64,000 nt of DNA. Source: Eledone cirrhosa (Eukaryota). The notes under the pieces are model-generated. The model was not told the DNA's origin, searched no databases, and saw only the letters and a list, made by a program, of their open reading frames with translations. Location: the NCBI GenBank assembly GCA_964016885.1, contig OZ024764.1, positions 11,594,001 to 11,658,000 of the forward strand, given 5' to 3'. The position numbers and the translations under genes are program-made. Below, one piece after another: positions 1,960-60,756 of this stretch (position 1 is its first letter; the number at the start of each line of letters is the position of its first letter).

Positions 1960-2003
<44 letters not shown>

Positions 2004-2089
2004 AGGAGGTGAGTTTTATTGTAGCACAATATGTTGATTTAAAACTTCACTATTCACAAGTGTTTTTTAAGCTTCATATCATGTCTCCC

Positions 2090-2157
2090 TATTTTATCTG
2101 ATGAGGATGCAGATATCATTCCATGATATTTGTTTTTGAAATGTGCATAATAAAATA
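2090..2157 (+). ncRNA. Minimal type-I hammerhead ribozyme motif in a (TA)n-flanked short element (~2001-2190)
   Basis: TATTTTAT-CTGATGA-GGATGCAGATATCA/TTCCA/TGATATTTGTTTTT-GAAA-TGTGCA-TA-ATAAAATA: intact core, 8-bp stem I, 14-bp stem II with G-U pairs. Confidence 0.75.
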
Positions 2158-2187
2158 CTTGGGACTCTTTTAACCATCTTTTGATCT

Positions 2188-2240
<53 letters not shown>

Positions 2241-3073: not shown

Positions 3074-4050
3074 GAGGTGTCTGCTGACTGTAGTTTTAAG
3101 TTCATATGTAAGGGAAGGCACGTCTTCTGTACAACTGTATGGTGCCAAAGGTCTTGATCCAGTGACATTGTCTTAGAGAGGTGTAGGTGAGCAAGGTCAA
3201 TCTTTATCACCTCGTCCCAGGTTTTTCTTGGTCTACCCACTCCGTAGCTTCCATCAATTTTCATTGCTCTGCACTTTTTTATACAGCTGTCGTCCTTCAT
3301 ACGCATCACATGTCCATACCAACGCAATCTCCTCTCCAGAACACAACATTTGATACCTCTTTTGCTTAGTCTCTCTCTTAATTCATTTATGCTTTGCCGT
3401 TCGCATGGAGGCACATGGCTTAGTGGTTAGGGCATTGGCCTTGCAATCGAAAGGTTGTGAGTTCAATTCTCAGACCGGGTGATGTGTTGTTTCCTTGAGC
3501 AAGACACTTTATTTCACATTGCTCCAGTTTACTCAGCTGTAGAAATGAGATGATAGGGACAGGGGTCCCTATCATTCCACTGCAAAGTGGTCGTGGAGGT
3601 GCAACGGCAAAAAAGCACCCAGCACTCACTGTAAATGAGGTTGGTGTTAGGAAGGGCATCCAGCTGTAGAAATCAAGCCAGAATCAGTTCCCGTCCCACC
3701 CTTGCAAGCAGGGAAAAAAACGGACGTAAAATGAAATGATGATGATGATGATACATTACTATTACACATCCATTGGAACATGCAAGCTTCATTTCTTTCT
3801 AACCTACGCAAGTCTTCAGCACACAACACCCAGGTCTCACTACCATGTAATATCACCATTCGTATACAAGCATCATACAATCTACCTTTCATTTTTAGAG
3901 AAAAACCCCTTGTGGCCAACAGCGGTATTAGCTCTCTGAATATTTCCCATCCCATTCTAACTCTGGCTACTGTACTTTCACAGCACCCACCTACACTGCT
4001 GATTTTGTCACCCAGGTAACGGAAAGTGTCTATTTCTATAGAACCATCAG
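3074..4050 (-). pseudogene. Decayed RTE LINE ORF C-terminal fragment, interrupted by a SINE
   Basis: TFRYLGD...LHGSETW...ERNEACM and RRLRWYGHVMRM...GRPRKTW, closely similar to the 45690-47901 ORF. Confidence 0.9.
3407..3752 (+). mobile_element. CORE-type tRNA SINE (family 2) with RTE-derived 3' half and (GAT)n tail
   Basis: A box TGGCTTAGTGG, B box GAGTTCAATTC, CORE-like CCTTGAGCAAGACACTTT...CAGCTGTAGAAATG; near-identical copies at 16359 and 32769. Confidence 0.85.
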
Positions 4051-4094
4051 AAATCCACCCATAAATATATACATTTATGGGTGGATTTCTGATG
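4045..4094. repeat. Perfect 22-bp-arm hairpin at the 5' truncation point of the RTE fragment
   Basis: CATCAGAAATCCACCCATAAAT-ATATAC-ATTTATGGGTGGATTTCTGATG. Confidence 0.9.
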
Positions 4095-4172: not shown

Positions 4173-4259
4173 TTCTACTAAAGTATAACTGTTGATTTCA
4201 TACAAATGAAACATCTTTGCTTTTGTCTTGCAAGATTCCTGATATGAAATAATCTGTTG
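4173..4259 (-). other. Candidate host exon (87 nt, open frame QQIISYQESCKTKAK...YTLVE)
   Basis: Minus-strand acceptor CCTGCTTTCCCGTCTAG and donor GAA|GTAATT; unique sequence between repeats. Confidence 0.3.
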
Positions 4260-4349
4260 CTAGACGGGAAAGCAGGCGTTAATAATAATAATAATATTAA
4301 TGGTGGTGGTGGTGGTGGTGGTGGTGGTGGATATATATATATATATACA

Positions 4350-5615
4350 TTAGAGAAAAATAAGCCACTCTACTTAGCCTTTGTTGACCTAGAGAAGGCC
4401 TTTGATAGGGTACCCCGATCTGTCATCTGGTGGTCTCTAAGGAAGCTAGGTGTTGAGGAATGGCTTGTAAGGACAGTGCAAACTTTGTACAGAGGTACTC
4501 TCAGTAAAGTCAGGGTAGGAATGGAGTTTAGTGAGGAATTCCAGATACAAGTAGGAGTACATCAAGGTTCGGTCCTCAGCCCACTCTTGTTCATTATAAT
4601 CCTCCAAGCCATAACAGAGGAGTTTAAGACTGGCTGTCCATGGGAACTTCTCTTATAGCAGAATCAGTAGAAGAGCTAGAGAATAAATTCTGGCTATGGA
4701 AACAGCAGTTGGAAGCAAGAGGACTGAGAGTGAACCTAGCTAAGACAAAAGTGTTGATGAGTAGAAAAGAGGACAAAACCCTGATTCTGTCAGGGAAATG
4801 GCCATGTTTGATATGCAGAAAAGGAACTGGCATAAATTCTATAAAATGCACACAATGCAGATCCTGGGTACACAAGAGATGTAGCGGGATAGCAGGCAAA
4901 CTAACAGGTAGGGAGAAATATGTATGCAGTAGATGTACAGGGAAATTAGACAGTAGAAGTCGCATTGATAGACACATTTTTCAGATGCAGGAGGGTGGAT
5001 AGAAGTGGTGGATAGCTTCCGGTACCTAGGAGATCAGATTAGCATGGGAGGAGGGTGTTCCGAGGCCATAGTATCTAGAATAAGGACGGGTTGGAAGAAG
5101 TTTAGGGAGCTGCTTCCTCTGTTGACGAAGAAGGGTTTCTCCCTGCGTACGAAAGGCCGGTTGTATGATGCCTGTGTGAGGAACGCGATGCTGTATGGTA
5201 GTGAGATATGGGCAGCAACTGCAGAGGATATGCGACGGCTGGAGAGAAATGAGGCAAGCATGCTCCGTTGGATGTGCAATGTCAGTGTGCGTGAACGACC
5301 CAGCATAAATGTGTTGAGAGAGAAACTGTGTCTGAGAGGGATAGCATGTAGTGTACGGGAGAGGAGACTTTGGTGGTATGGACGTGTGATGCGCATGGAC
5401 GATGACCGATGGGTGAAGAAGTGCCAGGAAATGCCAGTTGAAGGAAGACGTGGTAGAGGTAGACCACGAAAAAATTGGGTGGAGGTGGTGAGAACAGACC
5501 TCAGATCATTCAAGCTCACGGTGGAGGTGACGAGTGGAGAGATGCTGTGCTGAATAAGACCCGTCCCACCCTTGCAAGCAGGTAAAAGCGGACGTAAAAT
5601 GATGATGATGATGAT
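4350..5615 (+). pseudogene. 5'-truncated RTE LINE (subfamily A, short 3' UTR) with frameshifts; YADD motif deleted
   Basis: FVDLEKAFDRVPR, QGSVLSPLLF, PHD-like CLIC...CSRC, SFRYLG, LYGSE; ends GTCCCACCCTTGCAAGCAGG...(GAT)n. Confidence 0.92.
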
Positions 5616-5734
5616 ACACACACACATATATATATATATATGTATGCATACACGCATACATATATGTGTATATATATATATATATGTATTAGAATATAAA
5701 TATTAATAAAATAGATTTTCTTTTGATCAATTAC

Positions 5735-5787
5735 ATTTTATTGTACATATTTCGGATGTACAACAGTACGTCTTCATCAGACAAGAT
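5735..5787 (-). ncRNA. Degenerate minimal hammerhead motif in a (TA)n-flanked element (~5685-5905)
   Basis: Minus strand ATCTTGT-CTGATGA-AGACGTAC/TGTT/GTACATCC-GAAA-TATGTA-CA-ATAAAAT; the cleavage-site U is mutated to C; element alignable with 60300-60700. Confidence 0.65.
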
Positions 5788-5906
5788 ATAATGATACATG
5801 ACATACCCTAAGATATTAAATGGTTAAGATTTAATCAAGGTAGTGCTTCCAATCTACTGTAAAACTCATTCTTTGATGTACTCATTGAATCTTGTTTAAC
5901 TCTTCA

Positions 5907-15527: not shown

Positions 15528-15531
<4 letters not shown>

Positions 15532-15616
15532 AAAAAGTATGACCCTGACGGCAGAGCTCAAGCCACTTCGACGGCTATTTCTGGACTAAATTCAATTTAG
15601 TCCAGAAATAGCCGTC
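15528..15616. repeat. Second copy of the 1759-1866 element with a differently centred palindrome (15570-15616), joined to an RTE-A tail
   Basis: GAGCTCAAGCC..TTCGACGGCTA.TTCTG shared with 1782-1811; GACGGCTATTTCTGGACTAAATT-C-AATTTAGTCCAGAAATAGCCGTC. Confidence 0.85.
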
Positions 15617-15918
15617 CAACCCTTGCAAGCAGGGAAAAGCGGATTTAAAATGATAATGATGATGATATATATAAAAACAAATAGTAGAAAGGCAAAAGAT
15701 TTTTTTCCATAGAAAATGTTGAAGGGATATTTTTAGTGAAATTTCAAAACATTAATTTATTTACAATACCAGTTTCAGCATTAAATGCATTCAGGCTAAA
15801 ATTCCTAATGGGGTTAAGAACCCCATTATCAGGCTAAAATTCCTTTAGTCAAAAATACGGTGAAAGCTATTCTATTTTCTAATTTCAAACCTGCTCACTG
15901 TTTCAAAACATACTTACT

Positions 15919-15955
<37 letters not shown>

Positions 15956-16006
15956 TAAATAAAATAACAGGAGGCTGGACTGGTGTAAATCCTTGAAAGG
16001 TTTATT

Positions 16007-16064
16007 ATACTATGATCACTTCAATGACCGGGTTCCATATGAATCCGGTGATATCATCAGGTAT
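16007..16064 (-). ncRNA. Divergent minimal hammerhead motif in a (TA)n-flanked element (~15950-16342)
   Basis: Minus strand ATAC-CTGATGA-TATCACCGGATTC/ATATG/GAACCCGGTCATT-GAAG-TGATCA-TA-GTAT; palindromic stem III; A15.1 replaced by G. Confidence 0.6.
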
Positions 16065-16358
16065 TCGAAATATAACAAAGGAATATATAAAATTCATGGG
16101 TCCGAAATCAGAGACAGAGAGGACGACTGACCAACTAGTTGCTTTCACCTCGGTCAGTCGCCCTCAAGTGTCTCTGATTTCTTATTTTATTTATAATAAT
16201 TAACTCCGTACTCGCACCACCAACTACACAAACGAAGACGGGTGAACTGCACTATGTTGAGTACTCTCCACAATATTACACCAAGATTGACCTTACGGAA
16301 TGACCAGCTCTATCCAGTGGTGAACCAACAAACCTAAAGAAATATATATATAGATTAT

Positions 16359-16800: not shown

Positions 16801-17182
16801 AAGGGCGGTGAATTGCAGTATCGGTAGAGGGTCGGATGCCCTGCTTTCCAGCACAGAGTTACGCCCCTTTATGGTCTGAGTTCAAATCCCGCCGAGATTA
16901 ACTTTGCCTTTCATCCTTACGGGGGTCGATAAGATAAATTACCAGTAATACACTGGGGTAATTGCTGGCCTTGTGCCAAAAGTAGAAATGATTATGTATA
17001 CTTTATTTTATCGACCCTGTAAGGGTGAAATGCAAAGTTAACTTTGGCGGGATTTGAACTCAGACTACATAGAGTTACGGCCCTTTACCGCTTGAGTTCA
17101 AATCTCGCTTAGGCTAACTTTGCCTTTCATCCTTACAGGGTCAATAAAATAAAGTACCAGTAATGCCCTGGGGTAATTGCTG
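16801..17182 (+). mobile_element. Cluster of SINE family 1 copies (+ full, - partial, + partial)
   Basis: A/B boxes and body motif; inverted piece ~16997-17065. Confidence 0.85.
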
Positions 17183-34829: not shown

Positions 34830-36506
<1,677 letters not shown>

Positions 36507-36708
36507 TAGAAGGAGTATTTAATTTGTTGGAAGTCCGACAAATATAAATGTTTATAACTGATTTAGAGCACTCAACAAGTTACTGGAGTAAATATTCAAT
36601 GATATTAAATAAATTCAATGATATTAATTAAATAAAACTATCCAGTGAATTTCCAACCGATAAGGTATGATTTTCATGGGTATGTCTCTATTTATAAAAC
36701 AAACTTTG

Positions 36709-36772
36709 TATTTTATCTGATGAAAGCGTACCAATGTTGTCTTGGTACCCTTGAAATATATATAATAAAATA
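36709..36772 (+). ncRNA. Minimal type-I hammerhead ribozyme motif in a (TA)n-flanked element (~36503-36815)
   Basis: TATTTTAT-CTGATGA-AAGCGTACCAA/TGTTGTC/TTGGTACCCTT-GAAA-TATATA-TA-ATAAAATA; stem I extendable by TATTTATAAAAC/GTTTTATAAATA. Confidence 0.8.
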
Positions 36773-36811
36773 AATATGGTTTTATAAATATAGTTTCCAT
36801 TTATTTAATAT

Positions 36812-36847
<36 letters not shown>

Positions 36848-37235
36848 AATAAATTATCGTGAATCGGAATCTCGGCCCACGAAATAACGAAACACAATCT
36901 TCGAAATGCATGGCAAAGGGCTCAATAGTTTGGATAAACCAGAGCTATAACTATCGTTTAAGTACCAACACATAGAGACAATGCTTAAAATCATTCGCAC
37001 AGCCGAAAAGACGACCAGGAAAATTCGAGTCACACAAATAATAAATTAATGAATTAATAAATTAAATGAATGAAAAATCTTACAACTCGTCTAATCCAAA
37101 ATTAAGATAAATTAAATGAATTTAATCTAAATCAAAATTATGGGTGTCATGCCAGAAAGACATGCGCCATATCACCCGGAAAATAAGCTCTAAGATTCTA
37201 AGATTCTAATAAGCTCTAAGCTCTAAGAGCATTTT

Positions 37236-37377
37236 TATAATAACTAGAAATTGATTAACATATATATAAACATGAATAATCACAGGAGATAATTTTTGTG
37301 TGGTTACACACTTGTAAAAATTGTCTCCTGTGATTATTCATGTTTATATATATGTTAATCAATTTCTAGTTATTATA
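37236..37377. repeat. AT-rich hairpin, ~62-bp arms, 18-nt loop
   Basis: TATAATAACTAGAAATTG...GAGATAATTTTT / AAAAATTGTCTC...CTAGTTATTATA with one mismatch. Confidence 0.92.
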
Positions 37378-42659: not shown

Positions 42660-42828
42660 ATTGTTTCTACTTTTGGCACAAGGCCAGCAATTACCTAGTA
42701 CATTACTGGTACTTTATTTTATCGACCCGGTAAGGATAAAAGGCAAAGCTAACCAACGGGATTTGAACTCAGAATGGCAAGGGCCGTAACTCTATGCGTC
42801 AAAGCATGGCGCCCAACCCTCTACCGAT
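42660..42828 (-). mobile_element. SINE family 1
   Basis: Reverse-complement body and B box (GGATTTGAACTC). Confidence 0.85.
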
Positions 42829-42892
42829 AACACATATACATACTCACTCTCCATATATCTTTTCAATGGCTGACAATACCTTATCGAGGCCA

Positions 42893-43790
42893 CTCGATAC
42901 ATTGGCTCCCTACCTTTTTATCATCGCAGTGGACTATTGTATGTGCCTTGCACTGGAGAAACACCAGGACTCTGGCTTTACTGTAGCACTGGCTCAGAGC
43001 AGGAGAGTTAAGGCGAAAAAGATATCAGATGCTGAATTTGCCGATGACATAGTTTTGGTGACAAATATAGTGAAGGAGGCAGAGGATTTGATGCAGGAGG
43101 TGGAGACTGTGTCGATGAGTGTGGGGCTGGGAATGAATGAGACTAAAACAAAATATCTGGTAGAGAATGTTGAGACGCCAGAGGGGATCACTAATGTATG
43201 CGGGAAGCCGCTAGAATTGGTTGAGGATTTCCTGCATTTGGGAGCAAAGATTGGGAATACGGAAGATGATGTGGTTGAGAGGAAGAGCAAAGCCTGGGCG
43301 GCGTGCCACAGCTTGAGATCGGTGTGGAAGTCGGACCTTCGTGGAGACCTGAAAATCTGCCTCTTCATTGCTGTAGTGGAGTCTGTGCTGCTGTACGGGT
43401 CTGAGACTTGGACACTGACCAAGGAACTCACTCAGATGGTGGATGGATGCTACACGAGAATGCTGAGGATGGCTCTGAACATTAATCAGTATACACTGAG
43501 GATGAAGAACTGAGAGCTGTATGGGAGCCTCCAAAAGTCAGCTCAAAAGTGACACAGGAAACTGAGGTTAACTGGACATGCTCATCGACATCCAGAGTTG
43601 ACATTGCACTCAGTGCTCCTGTGGGAGCCCCTACATGGACACACTGGAAGAGGAAGACCAAGGTTAACGTATGTTGATGCCATAAGGACAGACACTGGTC
43701 TGTTGGAGACGCAGGACATGGCAGCGATAATGAGGGACAGAGACCGCTGGAGAGAACTCGTCCATGGATCTTGGGAATTTTACCCGCCCT
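42893..43790 (+). pseudogene. 5'-truncated non-LTR retrotransposon of a different RTE-like family
   Basis: DTLAPYLFIIAVDY, EFADDIVL, GLGMNETKT, DFLHLG, VLLYGSETW, later GRGRPRLTYVD...DRDRWR; stops/frameshifts after 43513. Confidence 0.88.
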
Positions 43791-45455: not shown

Positions 45456-45689
45456 TTTCATATGGAGTTATGTATGTGTGTGTATGTATATATATATATA
45501 TATATTTATATGGAGTTATGTATGTGTGTGTATATATTTATATGGAGTTATGTATGTGTGTGTGTATATATTTTTATAAGGAGTTGTGTATGTATGTGTG
45601 TGTATATATTTTTATATGTAGTTATGTATATGTATGTGTGTATATATATATTTATATGGAGTTATGTATGTGTGTATATATATATATAT

Positions 45690-48203
45690 TTTACTCAACG
45701 CCTACGACAGTAAAGAAGAACAGATAGAGACATTTAACGTAGAAGAGAACTGGGAGTTCCTAAAAAATAACTTACTAGAGGCGACGGATGAGGTTTGTGG
45801 CTGGAGTAAGACCTCAAGCAGGAGGAGAGTGACTTGGTGGTGGAACAATAAGGTAGATGAAGCAGTCAAGGCCAAGAGACAGGCATGGAAAGAATGGAAG
45901 AACGGGGGGAGCAGGGTACATTACATAGAGACCAAGAGGGAAGCTAGGCGACAAGTATACTTAGCTAGGAGGGAAGCAGAGGATAGAAAATTCAAGCATG
46001 TTTTACAACGTGAGGACCAGAAACAGGAGGTATTCAAGATTGCGAGGCAGTGTGTCAGAGATAGTTGTGATGTCATTGGAGAGAAGTGTATCCGGAATGA
46101 TAAAGGTGAGCTTGCCCTCACAAGTGCTGAGAAGAAAGATGCATGGAAGAGTCATTATGATAGATTACTAAATGAGGAGAATGCATGGGAAGAAGAGACC
46201 CTACCCCACGTAGACCCTATAGAGGGACCAGCAGTACAAGTCAGCGGCAGCGTAGTAAGTAAGGCAATCAGAGATATGAAGATAGGGAAGGCAACCGGTC
46301 CATCGGGTATAGCTGCCGAGATGCTGAAGGCATCTGGGTCTGTAGGTCACACTATAACCACACGTATCGTTAACCAGGTAATACTAGAGGGGGCCATACC
46401 AAAAGATTGGTGCAGTAGCATCATTGTCAACTGCTACAAAGGTAAAGGCGATGCACTAGATAGAGGAAACTATAGAGGTATAAAGTTGATGGACCAGGTC
46501 ATGAAAGTAACAGAAAGAGTTATAGCACAGCTGATTAGGGACCGGGTGAATATAGACGAGATGCAATTTGGGTTTGTTCCAGGGAAAGGCACCACTGATG
46601 CGCTCTTCCTTGTGAGGCAATTACAGGAAAAGTACCTAGCTAAAAGTAAGCCACTCTACTTGGCATTTGTCGACCTTGAGAAAGCCTTTGACAGAGTTCC
46701 ACGTGCAGTAATCTGGTGGGCTCTTAGAAAACTAGGAGTAGATGAATGGCTTGTGAAAGCGGTACAAGCCATGTATAGGGGAGCAGTCAGCAAAGTTAGG
46801 ATTGGCAATGAGTATAGCGAGGAATTTAGCGTACAGGTTGGGGTCCACCAGGGCTCTGTTCTTAGCCCTCTCCTGTTCATCATAGTCCTGCAGGCAATAA
46901 CGGAGGAGTTTAAGACCGGATGCCCATGGGAACTCCTGTATGCTGATGACCTCGCACTCATAGCTGAATCTATGGTAGAACTAGAGAATAAATTCCAAAC
47001 CTGGAAGCAGGGACTAGAGAGAAAGGGCCTCAAAGTCAACATGACAAAGACTAAGGTCCTTATAAGTAGACGAGAAAACAGAACCCAGATCCCCTCAGGG
47101 AAATGGCCTTGCTCAGTATGTAGGAAAGGTGTAGGTAGGAACTCCATTCTTTGCCCCAAATGCAAACAATGGGTACACAAGAGATGTAGCGGGATCTCAG
47201 GAAGCTTAATTAAGAATGTAGGATTCACATGCAGCAGCTGTGCTGAAACAGCAAGCAAACAGCCACAGGAAACAAGTACCACCAATCTCTGGGAGGGCCC
47301 TGTAGAAACAGTAGACAGCTTCTGCTACCTAGGTGACCGAATTAGCAACGGAGGTGGGTGCTCAGAAAGTACAATAACTAGGGTAAGAACGGGATGGAAG
47401 AAGTTTAGGGAACTACTACCACTGCTAGCTGCAAAAGGCTTCTCCCTCAGAATGAAAGGCAGACTGTATGATGCGTGTATCCGAACAGCGATGTTGCATG
47501 GTAGTGAGACCTGGGCGCTGAAGGTGGAAGACTTACGTAGATTAGAGAGAAACGAAGCCTGCATGCTCCGATGGATGTGTAACAGTAATATACGTGAACG
47601 ACAAAGCATAAATGAATTGAGAGAGAGACTGAGCATAAGAGGAATCAAATGCTGCGTGCAGGAGAGGCGGTTACGCTGGTATGGACATGTGATGCGTATG
47701 AAGGATGACAGCTGCATAAAAAGGTGCAGAGCACTAGAAGTTGATGGAAACCGCGGAGTGGGGAGACCCAAGATGACTTGGGATGAGGTGATAAAAGCCG
47801 ACCTTACCCAACTACACCTCTCAAAGTCAATGACACACGACCGTGACTTCTGGCGTCACGCAGTAATACAGGGTACCCGACCTCCCATGGGTACATGCTG
47901 AAGCATATAAACAATATGCCCCCCCCCCCCCACCGCAAGGTGGTCGTGGAGGTGCCACGGCAAAAAAGCACCCAGCCCACACTGTAAAGTGGACGTGTAG
48001 GCGCCACGAAAAAGCACCCAGCACTCACTGTAAATGAGGTTGGTGTTAGGAAGGGCATCCAGCTGTAGAAATCAAGCCAGATCAGTTCCTGTATGAGCAA
48101 GGCATGGTCAGCCGACCAGACACTGCCCACAACAGGACAACCCGTCTAACCCATGCTAGCGTGGAAGAACGGACGTAAAACGGTGATGATGATGATGATG
48201 ATG
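45690..48203 (+). mobile_element. 5'-truncated RTE-clade LINE (subfamily B) with ~300-bp 3' UTR and (GAT)n tail
   Basis: Uninterrupted RT ORF, no endonuclease domain left, tail CCCATGCTAGCGTGGAAGAACGGACGTAAAACG(GAT)n. Confidence 0.95.
45691..47901 (+). CDS. RTE-type reverse transcriptase ORF (partial, no true start) with an embedded PHD finger
   Basis: YRGIKL, QFGF, FVDLEKAFDRV, QGSVLSPLLF, LLYADDL, GLKVN, FCYLG, HGSETW, RLRWYGHV, GRPK; the listed ATG at 45634 lies in flanking microsatellite. Confidence 0.9.
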   Translation, partial: LLNAYDSKEEQIETFNVEENWEFLKNNLLEATDEVCGWSKTSSRRRVTWWWNNKVDEAVKAKRQAWKEWKNGGSRVHYIETKREARRQVYLARREAEDRKFKHVLQREDQKQEVFKIARQCVRDSCDVIGEKCIRNDKGELALTSAEKKDAWKSHYDRLLNEENAWEEETLPHVDPIEGPAVQVSGSVVSKAIRDMKIGKATGPSGIAAEMLKASGSVGHTITTRIVNQVILEGAIPKDWCSSIIVNCYKGKGDALDRGNYRGIKLMDQVMKVTERVIAQLIRDRVNIDEMQFGFVPGKGTTDALFLVRQLQEKYLAKSKPLYLAFVDLEKAFDRVPRAVIWWALRKLGVDEWLVKAVQAMYRGAVSKVRIGNEYSEEFSVQVGVHQGSVLSPLLFIIVLQAITEEFKTGCPWELLYADDLALIAESMVELENKFQTWKQGLERKGLKVNMTKTKVLISRRENRTQIPSGKWPCSVCRKGVGRNSILCPKCKQWVHKRCSGISGSLIKNVGFTCSSCAETASKQPQETSTTNLWEGPVETVDSFCYLGDRISNGGGCSESTITRVRTGWKKFRELLPLLAAKGFSLRMKGRLYDACIRTAMLHGSETWALKVEDLRRLERNEACMLRWMCNSNIRERQSINELRERLSIRGIKCCVQERRLRWYGHVMRMKDDSCIKRCRALEVDGNRGVGRPKMTWDEVIKADLTQLHLSKSMTHDRDFWRHAVIQGTRPPMGTC

Positions 48204-48965
48204 ATATACATATTTATATGGAGTTATGTGTGTGTATGTATATATATTTTTATATGGAGTTATGTATGTGTGTGTGTGTGTGTATATATTTTTATATGTA
48301 GTTATGTATGTGTGTGTATATATTTTATATGGAGTTATGTATGTGTGTGTATATATACATTTTTATATGTAGTTATGTATGTGTGTGTGTATATATATAT
48401 TTATATGTAGTTATGTATGTGTATATATATATTTATATGGAGTTATCAGTGTGTGTGTGTGTATATATATATTTTTTTATGGAGTTATGTATGTGTGTAT
48501 ATATATATATATTTTCATATGGAGTTATGTGTGTGTGTGTTTATATTTTTATATGGAGTTATGTATGTGTGTGTGTATCTGTATATATATGTGTGTGTGT
48601 ATATGTTGTCATGTAGATGTATGTGTATATACACACCATATAGTTTTGGATGTGTATACACCACATTGTTGTAAAGTGAAATTCTTAATACACCACCTAG
48701 GCCTGATTATATATAGGAATGATTTTATACGAATGAAACAGTTCTAGTTCTGTAGGAGCTTTTTTCTATATTAACCTCTGTCGTCATCACTCTACTTATG
48801 TATTGAGTACCTTATTTACTGTGATTACCCCGATTCTACTCGGGATCAACATATATATATTCTTCAAGGAACCTTCAGAGGAACCCCATTTCAGTTGCTT
48901 CTACTCGCAATCATATTTTTTTAGTCATTAATCAAGATTCATGATCATAGGTAAGAGTTAGCAGC

Positions 48966-51900
48966 ATTACTGAATTGAAGACAGTGAGTTTGGCTTTTAC
49001 ACCTACCTCCCTTCTTCTGATTACTGAATTGAAGATAGAGAGTTTGTCTTTTACACCTACCCCCCTTCTTCTGATTACTGAATTGAAGACAGCGAGTTTG
49101 GCTTTTATACCTACCTCCCTTCTTCTGATAACTGAATTGAAGATAGAGAGTTTGGCTTTTATACCTACCTCCCTTCTTCTGATTACTGAATTGAAGATAG
49201 AGAGTTTGGCTTTTACACCTACCTCCCTTCTTCTGATTACTGAATTGAAGATAGAGAGTTTGTCTTTTACACCTACCTCCCTTCTTCTGATAACTGAATT
49301 GAAGACAGCGAGTTTGGCTTTTATACCTACCTCCCTTCTTCTGATAACTGAATTGAAGATAGAGAGTTTGTCTTTTACACCTACCTCCCTTCTTCTGATT
49401 ACTGAACTGAAGAGAGAGAGTTTGTCTTTTACACCTACCTCCCTTCTTCTGATAACTGAATTGAAGATAGAGAGTTTGTCTTTTACACCTACCTCCCTTC
49501 TTCTGATTACTGAATTGAAGATAGAGAGTTTGTCTTTTACACCTACCTCCCTTCTTCTGATTACTGAACTGAAGAGAGAGAGTTTGTCTTTTACACCTAC
49601 CTCCCTTCTTCTGATAACTGAATTGAAGATAGAGAGTTTGTCTTTTACACCTACCTCCCTTCTTCTGATTACTGAATTGAAGATAGAGAGTTTGTCTTTT
49701 ACACCTACCTCCCTTCTTCTGATTACTGAACTGAAGAGAGAGAGTTTGTCTTTTACACCTACCTCCCTTCTTCTGATAACTGAATTGAAGATAGAGAGTT
49801 TGTCTTTTACACCTACCTCCCTTCTTCTGATTACTGAATTGAAGATAGAGAGTTTGTCTTTTACACCTACCTCCCTTCTTCTGATTACTGAATTGAAGAT
49901 AGAGAGTTTGTCTTTTACACCTACCTCCCTTCTTCTGATAACTGAACTGAAGAGAGAGAGTTTGTCTTTTACACCTACCTCCCTTCTTTTGAATAAAGAA
50001 TTGAAGATAGAGAGTTTGTCTTTTACACCTACCTCCCTTCTTCTGATTACTGAATTGAAGATAGAGAGTTTGTCTTTTACACCTACCTCCCTTCTTCTGA
50101 TTACTGAATTGAAGATAGAGAGTTTGTCTTTTACACCTACCTCCCTTCTTCTGATAACTGAGTTGAAGACAGCGAGTTTGGCTGTTACACCTACCTCCCT
50201 TCTTCTGATAACTGAATTGAAGACAGCGAGTTTGGCTTTTATACCTTCCTCCCTTCTTCTGATTACTGAATTGAAGACAGCGAGTTTGGCTTTTACACCT
50301 ACCTCCCTTCTTCTGATAACTGAATTGAAGACAGCGAGTTTGGCTTTTATACCTTCCTCCCTTCTTCTGATTACTGAATTGAAGACAGCGAGTTTGGCTT
50401 TTATACCTACCTCCCTTCTTCTGATTACTGAATTGAAGACAGCGAGTTTGGCTTTTACACCTACCTCCCTTCTTTTGATTACCGAATTGAAGATAGAGAG
50501 TTTGTCTTTTACACCTACCTCCCTTCTTCTGATTACTGAATTGAAGATAGAGAGTTTGTCTTTTACACCTACCTCCCTTCTTCTGATTACTGAATTGAAG
50601 ATAGAGAGTTTGTCTTTTACACCTACCTCCCTTCTTCTGATAACTGAGTTGAAGACAGCGAGTTTGGCTGTTACACCTACCTCCCTTCTTCTGATAACTG
50701 AATTGAAGACAGCGAGTTTGGCTTTTATACCTTCCTCCCTTCTTCTGATTACTGAATTGAAGACAGCGAGTTTGGCTTTTACACCTACCTCCCTTCTTCT
50801 GATAACTGAATTGAAGACAGCGAGTTTGGCTTTTATACCTTCCTCCCTTCTTCTGATTACTGAATTGAAGACAGCGAGTTTGGCTTTTATACCTACCTCC
50901 CTTCTTCTGATTACTGAATTGAAGACAGCGAGTTTGGCTTTTACACCTACCTCCCTTCTTTTGATTACCGAATTGAAGACAGCGAGTTTGTCTTTTACAA
51001 CTACCTCCCTTCTTCTGATTACCGAATTGAAGACAGCGAGTTTGGCTTTTATACCTTCCTCCCTTCTTCTGATTACTGAATTGAAGATAGAGAGTTTGTC
51101 TTTTACACCTACCTCCCTTCTTCTGATTACTGAATTGAAGATAGTTTGTCTTTTACACCTACCTCCCTTCTTCTGATTACCGAATTGAAGACAGCGAGTT
51201 TGGCTTTTATACCTTCCTCCCTTCTTCTGATTACTGAATTGAAGATAGAGAGTTTGTCTTTTACACCTACCTCCCTTCTTCTGATTACTGAATTGAAGAT
51301 AGTTTGGCTTTTACACCTACCTCCCTTCTTCTGATTACCGAATTGAAGACAGCGAGTTTGTCTTTTACACCTACCTCCCTTCTTCTGATTACTGAATTGA
51401 AGACAGCGAGTTTGTCTTTTACACCTGCCTCCCTTCTTCTGATTACTGAATTGAAGATAGAGAGTTTGTCTTTTACACCTGCCTCCCTTCTTCTGATTAC
51501 TGAACTGAAGAGAGAGAGTTTGTCTTTTACACCTACCTCCCTTCTGATGATTACTGAAATGAAGACAGCGAGTTTGGCTTTTACACCTACCTCCCTTCTT
51601 CTGATTACTGAATTGAAGATAGAGAGTTTGTCTTTTACACCTGCCTCCCTTCTTCTGATTACTGAACTGAAGAGAGAGAGTTTGTCTTTTACACCTACCT
51701 CCCTTCTGATGATTACTGAAATGAAGACAGCAAGTTTGGCTTTTATACCTTCCTCCCTTCTTCTGATTACTGAATTGAAGATAGAGAGTTTGTCTTTTAC
51801 ACCTACCTCCCTTCTTCTGATTACTGAATTGAAGATAGAGAGTTTGTCTTTTACACCTGCCTCCCTTCTTCTGATTACTGAATTGAAGATAGAGAGTTTG

Positions 51901-52152
51901 GCTTTTACACCTGCCTCCCTTCTTCTGATTACTGAACTGAAGAGAGAGAGTTTGTCTTTTACACCTACCTCCCTTCTGATGATTACTGAAATGAAGACAG
52001 CAAGTTTGGCTTTTACACCTGCCTCCCTTCTTCTGATTACTGAATTGAAGAGAGAGAGTTTGTTTTTTACACCTACCTCCCTTCTTCTGATTACTGAATT
52101 GAAGAGAGAGAGTTTGTCTTTTACACCTACCTCCCTTCTTCTGATTACTGAA
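48966..52152. repeat. 54-bp minisatellite, ~59 units
   Basis: 18-aa periodicity of the listed ORF; unit bounded by ATTACTGAAT; two units carry 4-bp deletions. Confidence 0.95.
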
Positions 52153-52518
52153 TGCTGGAGCTGGCCATTACTGCACCAAATCCTGCAATTCTTGCACTTA
52201 ATTCAGCCTCCTGCTTTCCATCACTTGTGAACATGGTCCCAAAATACTTGAACGCCTCTACCCGCTTCAGTGGAACTCCATTCACATGTAGAGTGCACTG
52301 CGCAGGCTTCCTGGAGAGGACGAGCGTCTCGGTTTTCGCAGCACTGGTTTTCCTTCCAGCCATGCAGTTCTCAGTATCAAACCTATAGAATGCAAGTTGG
52401 CGATCACCTTCTGTTGTGTTAAGTAACACCATGTCGTCTGCAAATTCCAGCCGACTGATTTTACACCCACCAGTCGTGATACCACTTCCAACCCAGCTGC
52501 GCATGTCAGTCCTGTTCA

Positions 52519-60245: not shown

Positions 60246-60287
<42 letters not shown>

Positions 60288-60329
60288 TTCGAAATATTAA
60301 CAAAAATAGAACTTCATTATGATCAAGTA

Positions 60330-60396
60330 TATTTTATTATACATATTTCAGAGGTACTGAGCTAACTTCAACAGTACGTCCTCATCAGATAAAATA
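60330..60396 (-). ncRNA. Minimal type-I hammerhead ribozyme motif (left arm)
   Basis: Exact reverse complement of 60497-60563. Confidence 0.8.
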
Positions 60397-60496
60397 AGAT
60401 GATGCATGACATACCCTGACATAGTAGATGGTTAAGATCCAGTCATGGTAGTGGATCTTAACCATCTACTATGTCAGAGTATGTCATGCATCATCT

Positions 60497-60563
60497 TATT
60501 TTATCTGATGAGGACGTACTGTTGAAGTTAGCTCAGTACCTCTGAAATATGTATAATAAAATA
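60497..60563 (+). ncRNA. Minimal type-I hammerhead ribozyme motif (right arm)
   Basis: TATTTTAT-CTGATGA-GGACGTACTG/TTGAAGTTAGCT/CAGTACCTCT-GAAA-TATGTA-TA-ATAAAATA. Confidence 0.8.
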
Positions 60564-60697
60564 TACTTGATCACAAGAATGTCTATTTTTGTTAATATTT
60601 TGAATGAATATTAATAACTCCAGAAAACCATACTGTTGAGTGCTTCCAATCTATTGTGAAACTAATTCTTTGATTTATTCATTGAACCTTGTTTAAC

Positions 60698-60756
<59 letters not shown>

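Follow-up and report, generated by a model that had tools for sequence, protein, structure and literature searches.

Opposed minimal hammerhead ribozymes and head-to-head palindromes are already described for Penelope-like elements (PLEs), as far as the accessible text of the papers cited here and below goes (PMC4209133, PMC3846280, PMC8557442). In Schistosoma mansoni, PLE minimal hammerheads occur in opposite-strand pairs that lie 100-700 bp apart (Cervera and de la Pena 2014, PMC4209133). Published PLE insertions contain an inverted 5′-truncated copy, carry a 30-40-bp tail at one end and favor (TA)n (Craig et al. 2021, PMC8557442), and the head-to-head palindromes found at inverted PLE junctions have been interpreted as self-priming (Arkhipova et al. 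2013, PMC3846280). The purified PLE protein of the anole acts on AT-rich DNA by cutting both strands and extending both (Frangieh et al. 2024, PMC11167929); in that system two RNA start sites bound the tail, a dimer is predicted, uncleaved RNA serves as the template, and the hammerhead cleaves only with the protein. The mechanism of inverted PLE insertions has been named as a next task (PMC8557442). For cephalopods, a repeat annotation of Octopus vulgaris reports recently active Penelope families, and the word ‘ribozyme’ is absent from its main text in the form accessible to us (PMC13282606); a search of the literature found no description of hammerhead repeats in cephalopods, a weak negative whose scope does not extend to repeat libraries, subscription papers or supplements.

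Here we describe a locus at 60281-60700 of a stretch of 64,000 nucleotides from Eledone cirrhosa (contig OZ024764.1, positions 11,594,001 to 11,658,000; hereafter the window). We consider it quite probable that this 60.3-kb locus consists of head-to-head copies in (TA)n, likely left by a single insertion that a PLE reverse transcriptase/endonuclease carried out in trans, and the palindrome so formed is predicted to silence both of its ribozymes.

Anatomy of the 60.3-kb locus and its family

The inverted repeat spans 331 bp (60281-60611), with arms at 60281-60441 and 60452-60611 around a 10-nt loop. Its 331-nt self-match reaches 94.6% (E 9e-147), the arms show six differences in 161 aligned columns, including one indel, and as RNA the repeat folds with -256.6 kcal/mol (z -37), a value equaled by 0 of 100 shuffles. 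An initial annotation of this DNA had proposed a ~330-bp inverted repeat with a hammerhead in each arm; both are confirmed, the latter as a 67-nt fold per arm. The whole element is a 416-nt island between (TA)18 and (TA)27, the former of which is likely half of the target microsatellite, and no open reading frame of note is present in its six frames. The locus pairs a tail-less copy on the minus strand with a tail-bearing, nearly full copy on the plus strand, and the two overlap by 2 nt (Table 1). The 3′ end of the left copy (60281-60453) directly abuts (TA)n, and its 5′ part takes in the 10-nt loop.

Table 1. Features of the 60.3-kb locus and of the related loci, in window coordinates
Feature	Position	Strand	Basis or remark
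Left flank, (TA)18	60249..60284	none	From sequence
Left repeat copy, tail-less	60281..60453	-	Loop aligns with the 5.7-kb copy in this same orientation
Minimal type I hammerhead fold, left copy	60330..60396	-	Descriptor and covariation
Head-to-head junction	60442..60453	none	Loop 60442-60451 plus 2-nt overlap 60452-60453 common to both copies
Right repeat copy	60452..60611	+	5′ end ~12 nt short of that of the left copy
Upstream segment, alternative ‘off’ fold	60478..60493	+	Predicted pairing with the core and the 5′ strand of helix II, weak here
Minimal type I hammerhead fold, right copy	60497..60563	+	Descriptor and covariation
89-nt tail of right copy	60612..60700	+	Family contigs and sequence comparison
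Right flank, (TA)27	60701..60754	none	From sequence
Related locus in (TA)n	5686..5906	tail-less copy 5686-5845 (-), tail end 5842-5906 (+)	Sequence comparison
More distant family locus in (TA)n	36505..36815	hammerhead 36709-36772 (+)	Descriptor and comparison
Most distant family locus in (TA)n	2000..2194	hammerhead 2090-2157 (+)	Descriptor and comparison

All four family loci in the window have (TA)n on both sides, and the 2.1-, 5.7- and 36.7-kb copies each lie in an island of 195-311 nt. The related copy that the annotation had placed near 5685-5905 is real: there, a tail-less copy ending at the same point as the one at 60.3 kb shares a 4-nt overlap with a second piece, which consists of the last ~62 nt of the tail, and likeness to the 60.3-kb locus is 77% in the arm and 90% over the last 59 nt. 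At 36.5 kb, the left ~115 nt show weak likeness to an inverted tail plus 3′ end (p 0.01; the tail match leads the next non-self window by a single point, nhmmer E 5.2), and no inverted tail is demonstrated at the left end of the 2.0-kb locus (p 0.6 and 0.16). Searched with profile R1, the window yields no significant hit other than the five sequences on which the profile was trained (next 21 bits, E 0.1).

Separately, a (TA)n island with an internal 29-nt inverted repeat lies at 15952-16341 and is likely another PLE-type insertion. At 16003-16072 (minus strand) there is a hammerhead-like motif of another family, with CUGAUGA, a palindromic helix III and G for A15.1 (R1 21 bits, E 0.1).

Contigs of 4 of 17 public runs (X1, X4, X5 and X6; X2, X3 and X7-X17 were left out) were compared with the locus. 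Among the runs left out, X7-X14 have only small shares of the sampled words, and none of the 17 is listed as an RNA run. X4 is another sample of the same organism as X1, and X5 and X6 are other organisms. Matching contigs number 2,630 in X1, 92 in X4 and one each in X5 and X6, the X6 match being one piece that covers 60455-60595 only; pattern scans for the motif returned none in viral contigs and, in each of two scans, none in metagenome contigs. The boundary 60611/60612 is bridged by 2 of the 18 pieces listed (X1 and X5) and 60638/60639 by 5 of the 18 (X1 and X4), with at least 31 letters on each side. The bridging contigs differ at 6-12 letters and are thus other copies of the family. These bridged boundaries show that the right arm, the 27-nt stretch that follows it and the last 62 nt are one native sequence, and hence that 60612-60700 is a native 3′ tail. 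In X1, 60611 is followed by loose (TA)n ends in 4 contigs, and 60697 likewise in 13; this is a family with two 3′ ends, 89 nt apart.

The initial annotation had also pointed to CACT at both breakpoints of an inverted block that the 5.7-kb copy lacks, and had left open whether this block was gained or lost. The 4-nt word (AGTG/CACT) is present at both places. One could suppose that a 5.7-kb-type insertion later gained the block, by a DNA template switch or by a second insertion with a 4-bp duplication: 60454-60638 is bounded by that same word, and the arms are 96% identical with shared minority letters. However, the right edge of the supposed block is no junction, as the arm, the 27-nt stretch and the last 62 nt are continuous in other copies, and a template switch on the tail-less copy gives no source for the 27 nt. 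We consider a later gain, which the bridging contigs largely refute, very improbable, and for the same continuity 60454-60638 was rejected as an inserted or deleted unit. The two-copy anatomy explains CACT at both places, so no gained or lost block is needed.

Where the two copies meet varies through the family. Among the 15 of 25 joints listed, every pair of breaks is different, with the left break at 60347-60450 (at 60437-60450 in 7 of the 15) and the right break at 60459-60659; because the short sides of the joints are mostly 21-33 letters, at 82% likeness on a palindromic query, single joint rows are uncertain and some are possibly misplaced. We take each joint to be a left copy and a right copy that meet head to head, with the point of truncation differing between them. 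The palindrome centre of the 60.3-kb locus is rare in the family, as X1 depth is 180 at 60454 versus 106,108 at 60439, and X4 depth just right of the centre is 0 (summed contig depth is not taken here as copy number). One listed X1 contig, 87% alike, spans the same centre, which therefore recurs.

This recurrence would suit the palindrome being a master element, whether fold-back or MITE-like DNA or a whole-hairpin RNA retro-element, with 5.7-kb-type copies as deletion products between short direct repeats. A later deletion between the two AGTG/CACT words is possible and would convert the 60.3-kb type into the 5.7-kb product, and microhomology deletions of PLE copies have been described (PMC3846280). 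Such a master, however, is hard to reconcile with the steep fall in X1 depth at the centre and its absence in X4, and with the fact that at least some copies run past 60453 into other sequence. The ends are also unequal: the inverted repeat is not terminal on the right, where the 89-nt overhang follows, and so does not frame the unit as in a fold-back or MITE element, and the internal junction varies. We therefore regard a master element as unlikely in high degree. The palindrome as a unit of its own, as first annotated, gives way to two joined copies, given that in other members of the family 60612-60700 follows directly on the right arm and that fold-back at its centre amounts to at most ~0.2% of X1 summed family depth.

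Both arms carry minority letters in common (60439/60454 and 60606/60286, each at ~4% of X1 depth), which indicates that they come from one subfamily. At 60319 all aligned X1 depth has a letter other than that of the left arm, and this points to a later mutation. We first noted that the arm differences cluster, with five in the outer 46 nt and one in the inner 115 (Fisher p 0.008), as two templates might leave them; this reading was dropped because the boundary was chosen post hoc, because a stretch of 9 nt takes in four of the five outer changes, which may be one event, and because of the left-arm letter at 60319.

The exact 60.3-kb junction and the private letters of the left arm are not among the listed contigs, so that the locus itself rests on the assembly, and it may be absent from the samples compared. 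An assembly or library fold-back artefact would account for this, as it would for the fact that no listed contig spans the stretch and that the best run has 0.48 of the sampled words. Yet the unit is short and lies between different flanks, its right arm runs not only into the true family tail but up to a (TA)n end, another copy bridges a like centre, and the geometry is repeated by two other units of the window. In view of the differences between the arms, the true tail that follows the right arm and the similar joins present in contigs, we conclude that the locus is probably real, and we give an artefact scarcely any credence.

Hammerhead folds and their predicted behavior

The left and right hammerheads are identical over 67 nt. 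The motif comprises a helix I with 8/8 pairs, CUGAUGA, a helix II of nine pairs and one C-C mismatch, GAAA, a self-complementary 8-nt helix III, and the triplet AUA, which we take to satisfy the NUH rule. In the right copy, helix I is formed by 60497-60504 and 60556-60563, the core occupies 60505-60511, helix II is formed by 60512-60521 and 60534-60543, the helix III palindrome lies at 60547-60554, and the cut site is predicted after 60555. The full core (CUGANGA, GAAA and NUH) is present in both arms and in two of the three other copies. The exception is the 5.7-kb hammerhead (5734-5788, minus strand), in which U16.1 is changed and the first helix II pair is broken, and which is likely dead. 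In helix III, self-complementarity over 8 nt holds with 4/4 pairs in three of the four distinct copies, including one A-U to G-C change. The earlier reading of the locus as a PLE-type derivative with minimal, dimer-type hammerheads is supported.

A descriptor that was composed after these copies had been seen matches five times in the window, compared with a mean of 0.01 (maximum 1) in 200 local shuffles. Three scans with the Rfam hammerhead models, at gathering score or E up to 10, gave no match. No microRNA family reached the Rfam gathering level in the element; the best was mir-279, with 33.1 bits versus 56, over the perfect central hairpin. The annotation had named covariation across copies as a test of the fold, and covariation is indeed present in the window copies: across four distinct sequences, from which the structure itself was derived, 96.3% of cells are paired and 7 of 21 pairs are altered on both sides (six in helix II, one in helix III). 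On four of five measures at most 1 of 500 shuffles was as high, on the fifth 6 of 500, and slid controls were far lower.

Variation among the public contigs (counting those at least 82% alike) falls unevenly on the motif: of the 40 variant rows listed, out of 58 in all, nine lie within the two ribozymes, seven of them in loop II and two in helix II, whereas the core and helices I and III have none. This contrast between a conserved core and a variable loop II would say that the ribozyme is under selection in its source RNA, though the inserted copies remain uncut.

Folding of the isolated motif gives helix II a probability of 0.94 and helix I one of 0.36. Closure of helix III is energetically costly (-5.0 versus -8.5 kcal/mol) and the intermolecular helix III duplex is weak at 60.3 kb (-2.2 kcal/mol), in line with the low, dimer-dependent activity of minimal PLE motifs in the accessible reports (PMC4209133, PMC6765202; for dimer cleavage, Lunse et al., as cited in PMC6765202). 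When the full palindrome is folded, the probability of helices I and II is 0.0 on both strands, as expected from the earlier suggestion that the fold-back sequesters the ribozyme. The head-to-head order means that in read-through RNA of either strand the antisense arm is transcribed first, so that the ribozyme is predicted to be dead; such RNA would form a ~160-bp duplex. As the ribozymes lie on opposite strands, they do not pair in cis. We predict that the ribozymes of the palindrome block themselves and are not a designed switch.

A hairpin of this length is sufficient for ADAR or Dicer. That length, and the intact and identical state of both ribozymes, would be consistent with a selected device of host or element, either a bidirectional self-cleaving switch or a dsRNA switch. 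Identity, however, is what recent common origin leads one to expect, a cis dimer is impossible on opposite strands, the antisense arm is always made first, no host exon was recognized in the window, and the structure is rare in the family. We find it exceedingly unlikely that the opposed ribozymes were selected as such.

The segment upstream of the ribozyme can be paired in silico with the core and helix II. At 5.7 and 36.7 kb the predicted pairing is strong, with 2 of 300 shuffles reaching its level; the two 60.3-kb arms are borderline cases (35 of 300 and 17 of 300), and at 2.1 kb the pairing is absent (130 of 300); it is possible that the segment is a conserved ‘off’ fold. The regions concerned are 60478-60520, 5734-5833 and 36664-36772. 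If the ribozyme has a role at all, it would be to cut the source RNA, in a way that depends on dimers and is perhaps assisted by protein.

Probable origin by Penelope-type insertion

Four of five PLE features are found at the locus: an inverted head-to-head copy, a one-sided tail, insertion into (TA)n and a hammerhead in the putative terminal repeat. Among 76 window frames there is no Pfam hit for GIY-YIG and no PLE reverse transcriptase, Pfam RVT_1 being found only in three LINE-type frames, and no target-site duplication is readable within (TA)n. The initial annotation had offered a non-coding PLE derivative or a retrozyme-like unit. Its first half stands, with the inverted copy, the native tail on one side, the (TA)n target and the minimal hammerhead all of PLE type; a strict retrozyme does not, as tandem units are absent (4 of 4 window loci are single or inverted, and no joint of a 3′ end to a 5′ end is among the 15 of 25 joints listed). 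We infer that the element is a PLE-mobilized non-coding derivative, as distinct from a proven member of a named clade, in which the arm would correspond to the pLTR.

The three LINE-type reverse transcriptase frames of the window lie at 45622-47901 (759 aa open), 4248-5553 and 42767-43513; they are RTE-like by reading, and in two of the three a PHD-finger-like domain follows the reverse transcriptase. A near-perfect 50-nt hairpin (4045-4094) lies within a LINE remnant. Elsewhere, 48932-52230 is a tandem array of ~51-nt units in which both strands stay open for 2-3 kb, and 16870-17180 holds an abundant SINE-like repeat in head-to-head and tandem copies with overlapping inverted repeats.

We propose the following course of events. 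The PLE protein would cut both strands of the (TA)n, and both DNA ends would prime reverse transcription on uncleaved family RNA, one at a short site at ~60611 and the other 89 nt further 3′, at ~60700. The short-site cDNA would reach the 5′ end of the RNA, or nearly so, and the other cDNA would stop variably; the cDNA ends would then anneal over 2-4 nt (2 nt at 60.3 kb, 4 nt at 5.7 kb), and fill-in would follow. If both cDNAs were nearly full length, as they would be here, a long palindrome with two opposed ribozymes would arise as a by-product.

For the 60.3-kb join we lean toward such two-ended priming; self-priming (snap-back) combined with a template switch is a real contender that we hold somewhat doubtful. 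Plain snap-back of a tail-bearing cDNA was rejected for the 60.3-kb locus, where the loop belongs to the tail-less copy; a possible alternative is that a tail-less cDNA snapped back and that synthesis then switched to the tail. Two (TA)n units unrelated to the family have the same geometry, at 1755-1949 (arms 56, loop 4, overhang 79) and 36846-37377 (arms 62, loop 18, overhang 390, with no open frame of note), and in each one arm is flush with (TA)n. At 1.8 kb the loop belongs to the tail-bearing copy, and a relative at 15.5 kb is symmetric about another centre, as snap-back predicts. Across the four hairpin units the small loops (3, 4, 10 and 18 nt) fit snap-back no less than they fit two independent cDNAs. 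Prediction gives no stable DNA hairpin for the junction as it would be ahead of fill-in (-1.4 kcal/mol).

The units at 1755-1949 and 15530-15625 form a second (TA)n hairpin family, which has no hammerhead core and whose members are symmetric about different centres. Their loops are 4 and 3 nt, respectively, and the 15530-15625 copy is cut by a LINE 3′ end. This second family fits snap-back priming.

Seven of the 15 left breaks listed, and the ends of both window copies (60.3 and 5.7 kb), lie at 60437-60453 and suggest a short RNA with its 5′ end there; we treat this as a lead only, as the unique part of the query also ends there and some contigs continue into other sequence. Tentatively, and with rather less than even confidence, we put forward a ~260-nt, very high-copy, non-autonomous ‘PLE-SINE’. 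This would be a short RNA that has a 5′ end of its own, two fixed priming sites 89 nt apart and a conserved dimer-type hammerhead kept inactive by a hairpin upstream of it, and that is pasted into (TA)n as head-to-head pairs.

Significance and relation to known systems

The single 60.3-kb locus, at which a known pattern of insertion happened to give a symmetric product, carries little weight alone, and it is the family, not the palindrome, that is of greater interest. With its fixed pair of 3′ ends and its variable 5′ joins, this short and abundant family offers many junctions for testing models of PLE insertion, and its 89-nt tail would extend the known range of PLE tails. If the ‘PLE-SINE’ is true, the junctions would be a natural record that decides between two-ended priming and snap-back, and rare near-symmetric copies would seed 160-bp RNA duplexes in an octopod genome. 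Microsatellite load and the types of SINE and RTE present fit an octopod host. A-to-I editing is heavy in octopod genomes.

Compared with the pseudo-LTR hammerheads of EN+ PLEs, in the available text of PMC4209133, the family has the same type I minimal core, long helix II and dimer-only palindromic helix III, and in both cases the copies are dispersed and mostly single. In contrast, most PLE motifs in that report have a G10.1-C11.1 pair and an extra nucleotide after A9, neither of which is present in any window copy; pair 10.1-11.1 is G-U in the 60.3-kb and 2.1-kb copies, A-U at 36.7 kb and A-C at 5.7 kb.

The locus shares with inverted PLE insertions, as far as these are set out in the accessible literature, a head-to-head 5′-truncated copy, a palindrome at the junction, a one-sided tail, an AT-rich target and 5′ microhomology. 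It differs in its tail, which is 89 nt long rather than the 30-40 nt of published insertions, in that whole insertions are here only 195-420 nt and non-coding, and in that the tail-less copy seems to end near one point, as it would if made from a short RNA template. Animal non-LTR retrozymes (PMC7229834; Li, Clavereau and Pollet 2026, 10.64898/2026.07.22.740005) are the other close parallel: in the text available, they too are short, AT-rich and non-coding with a type I hammerhead, both they and the present family are likely PLE-derived and mobilized in trans, and many solo monomers are reported for them. Where the two part is in the arrangement of their copies, for the family described here has inverted pairs and, in the window and among the joints listed, no head-to-tail tandem.
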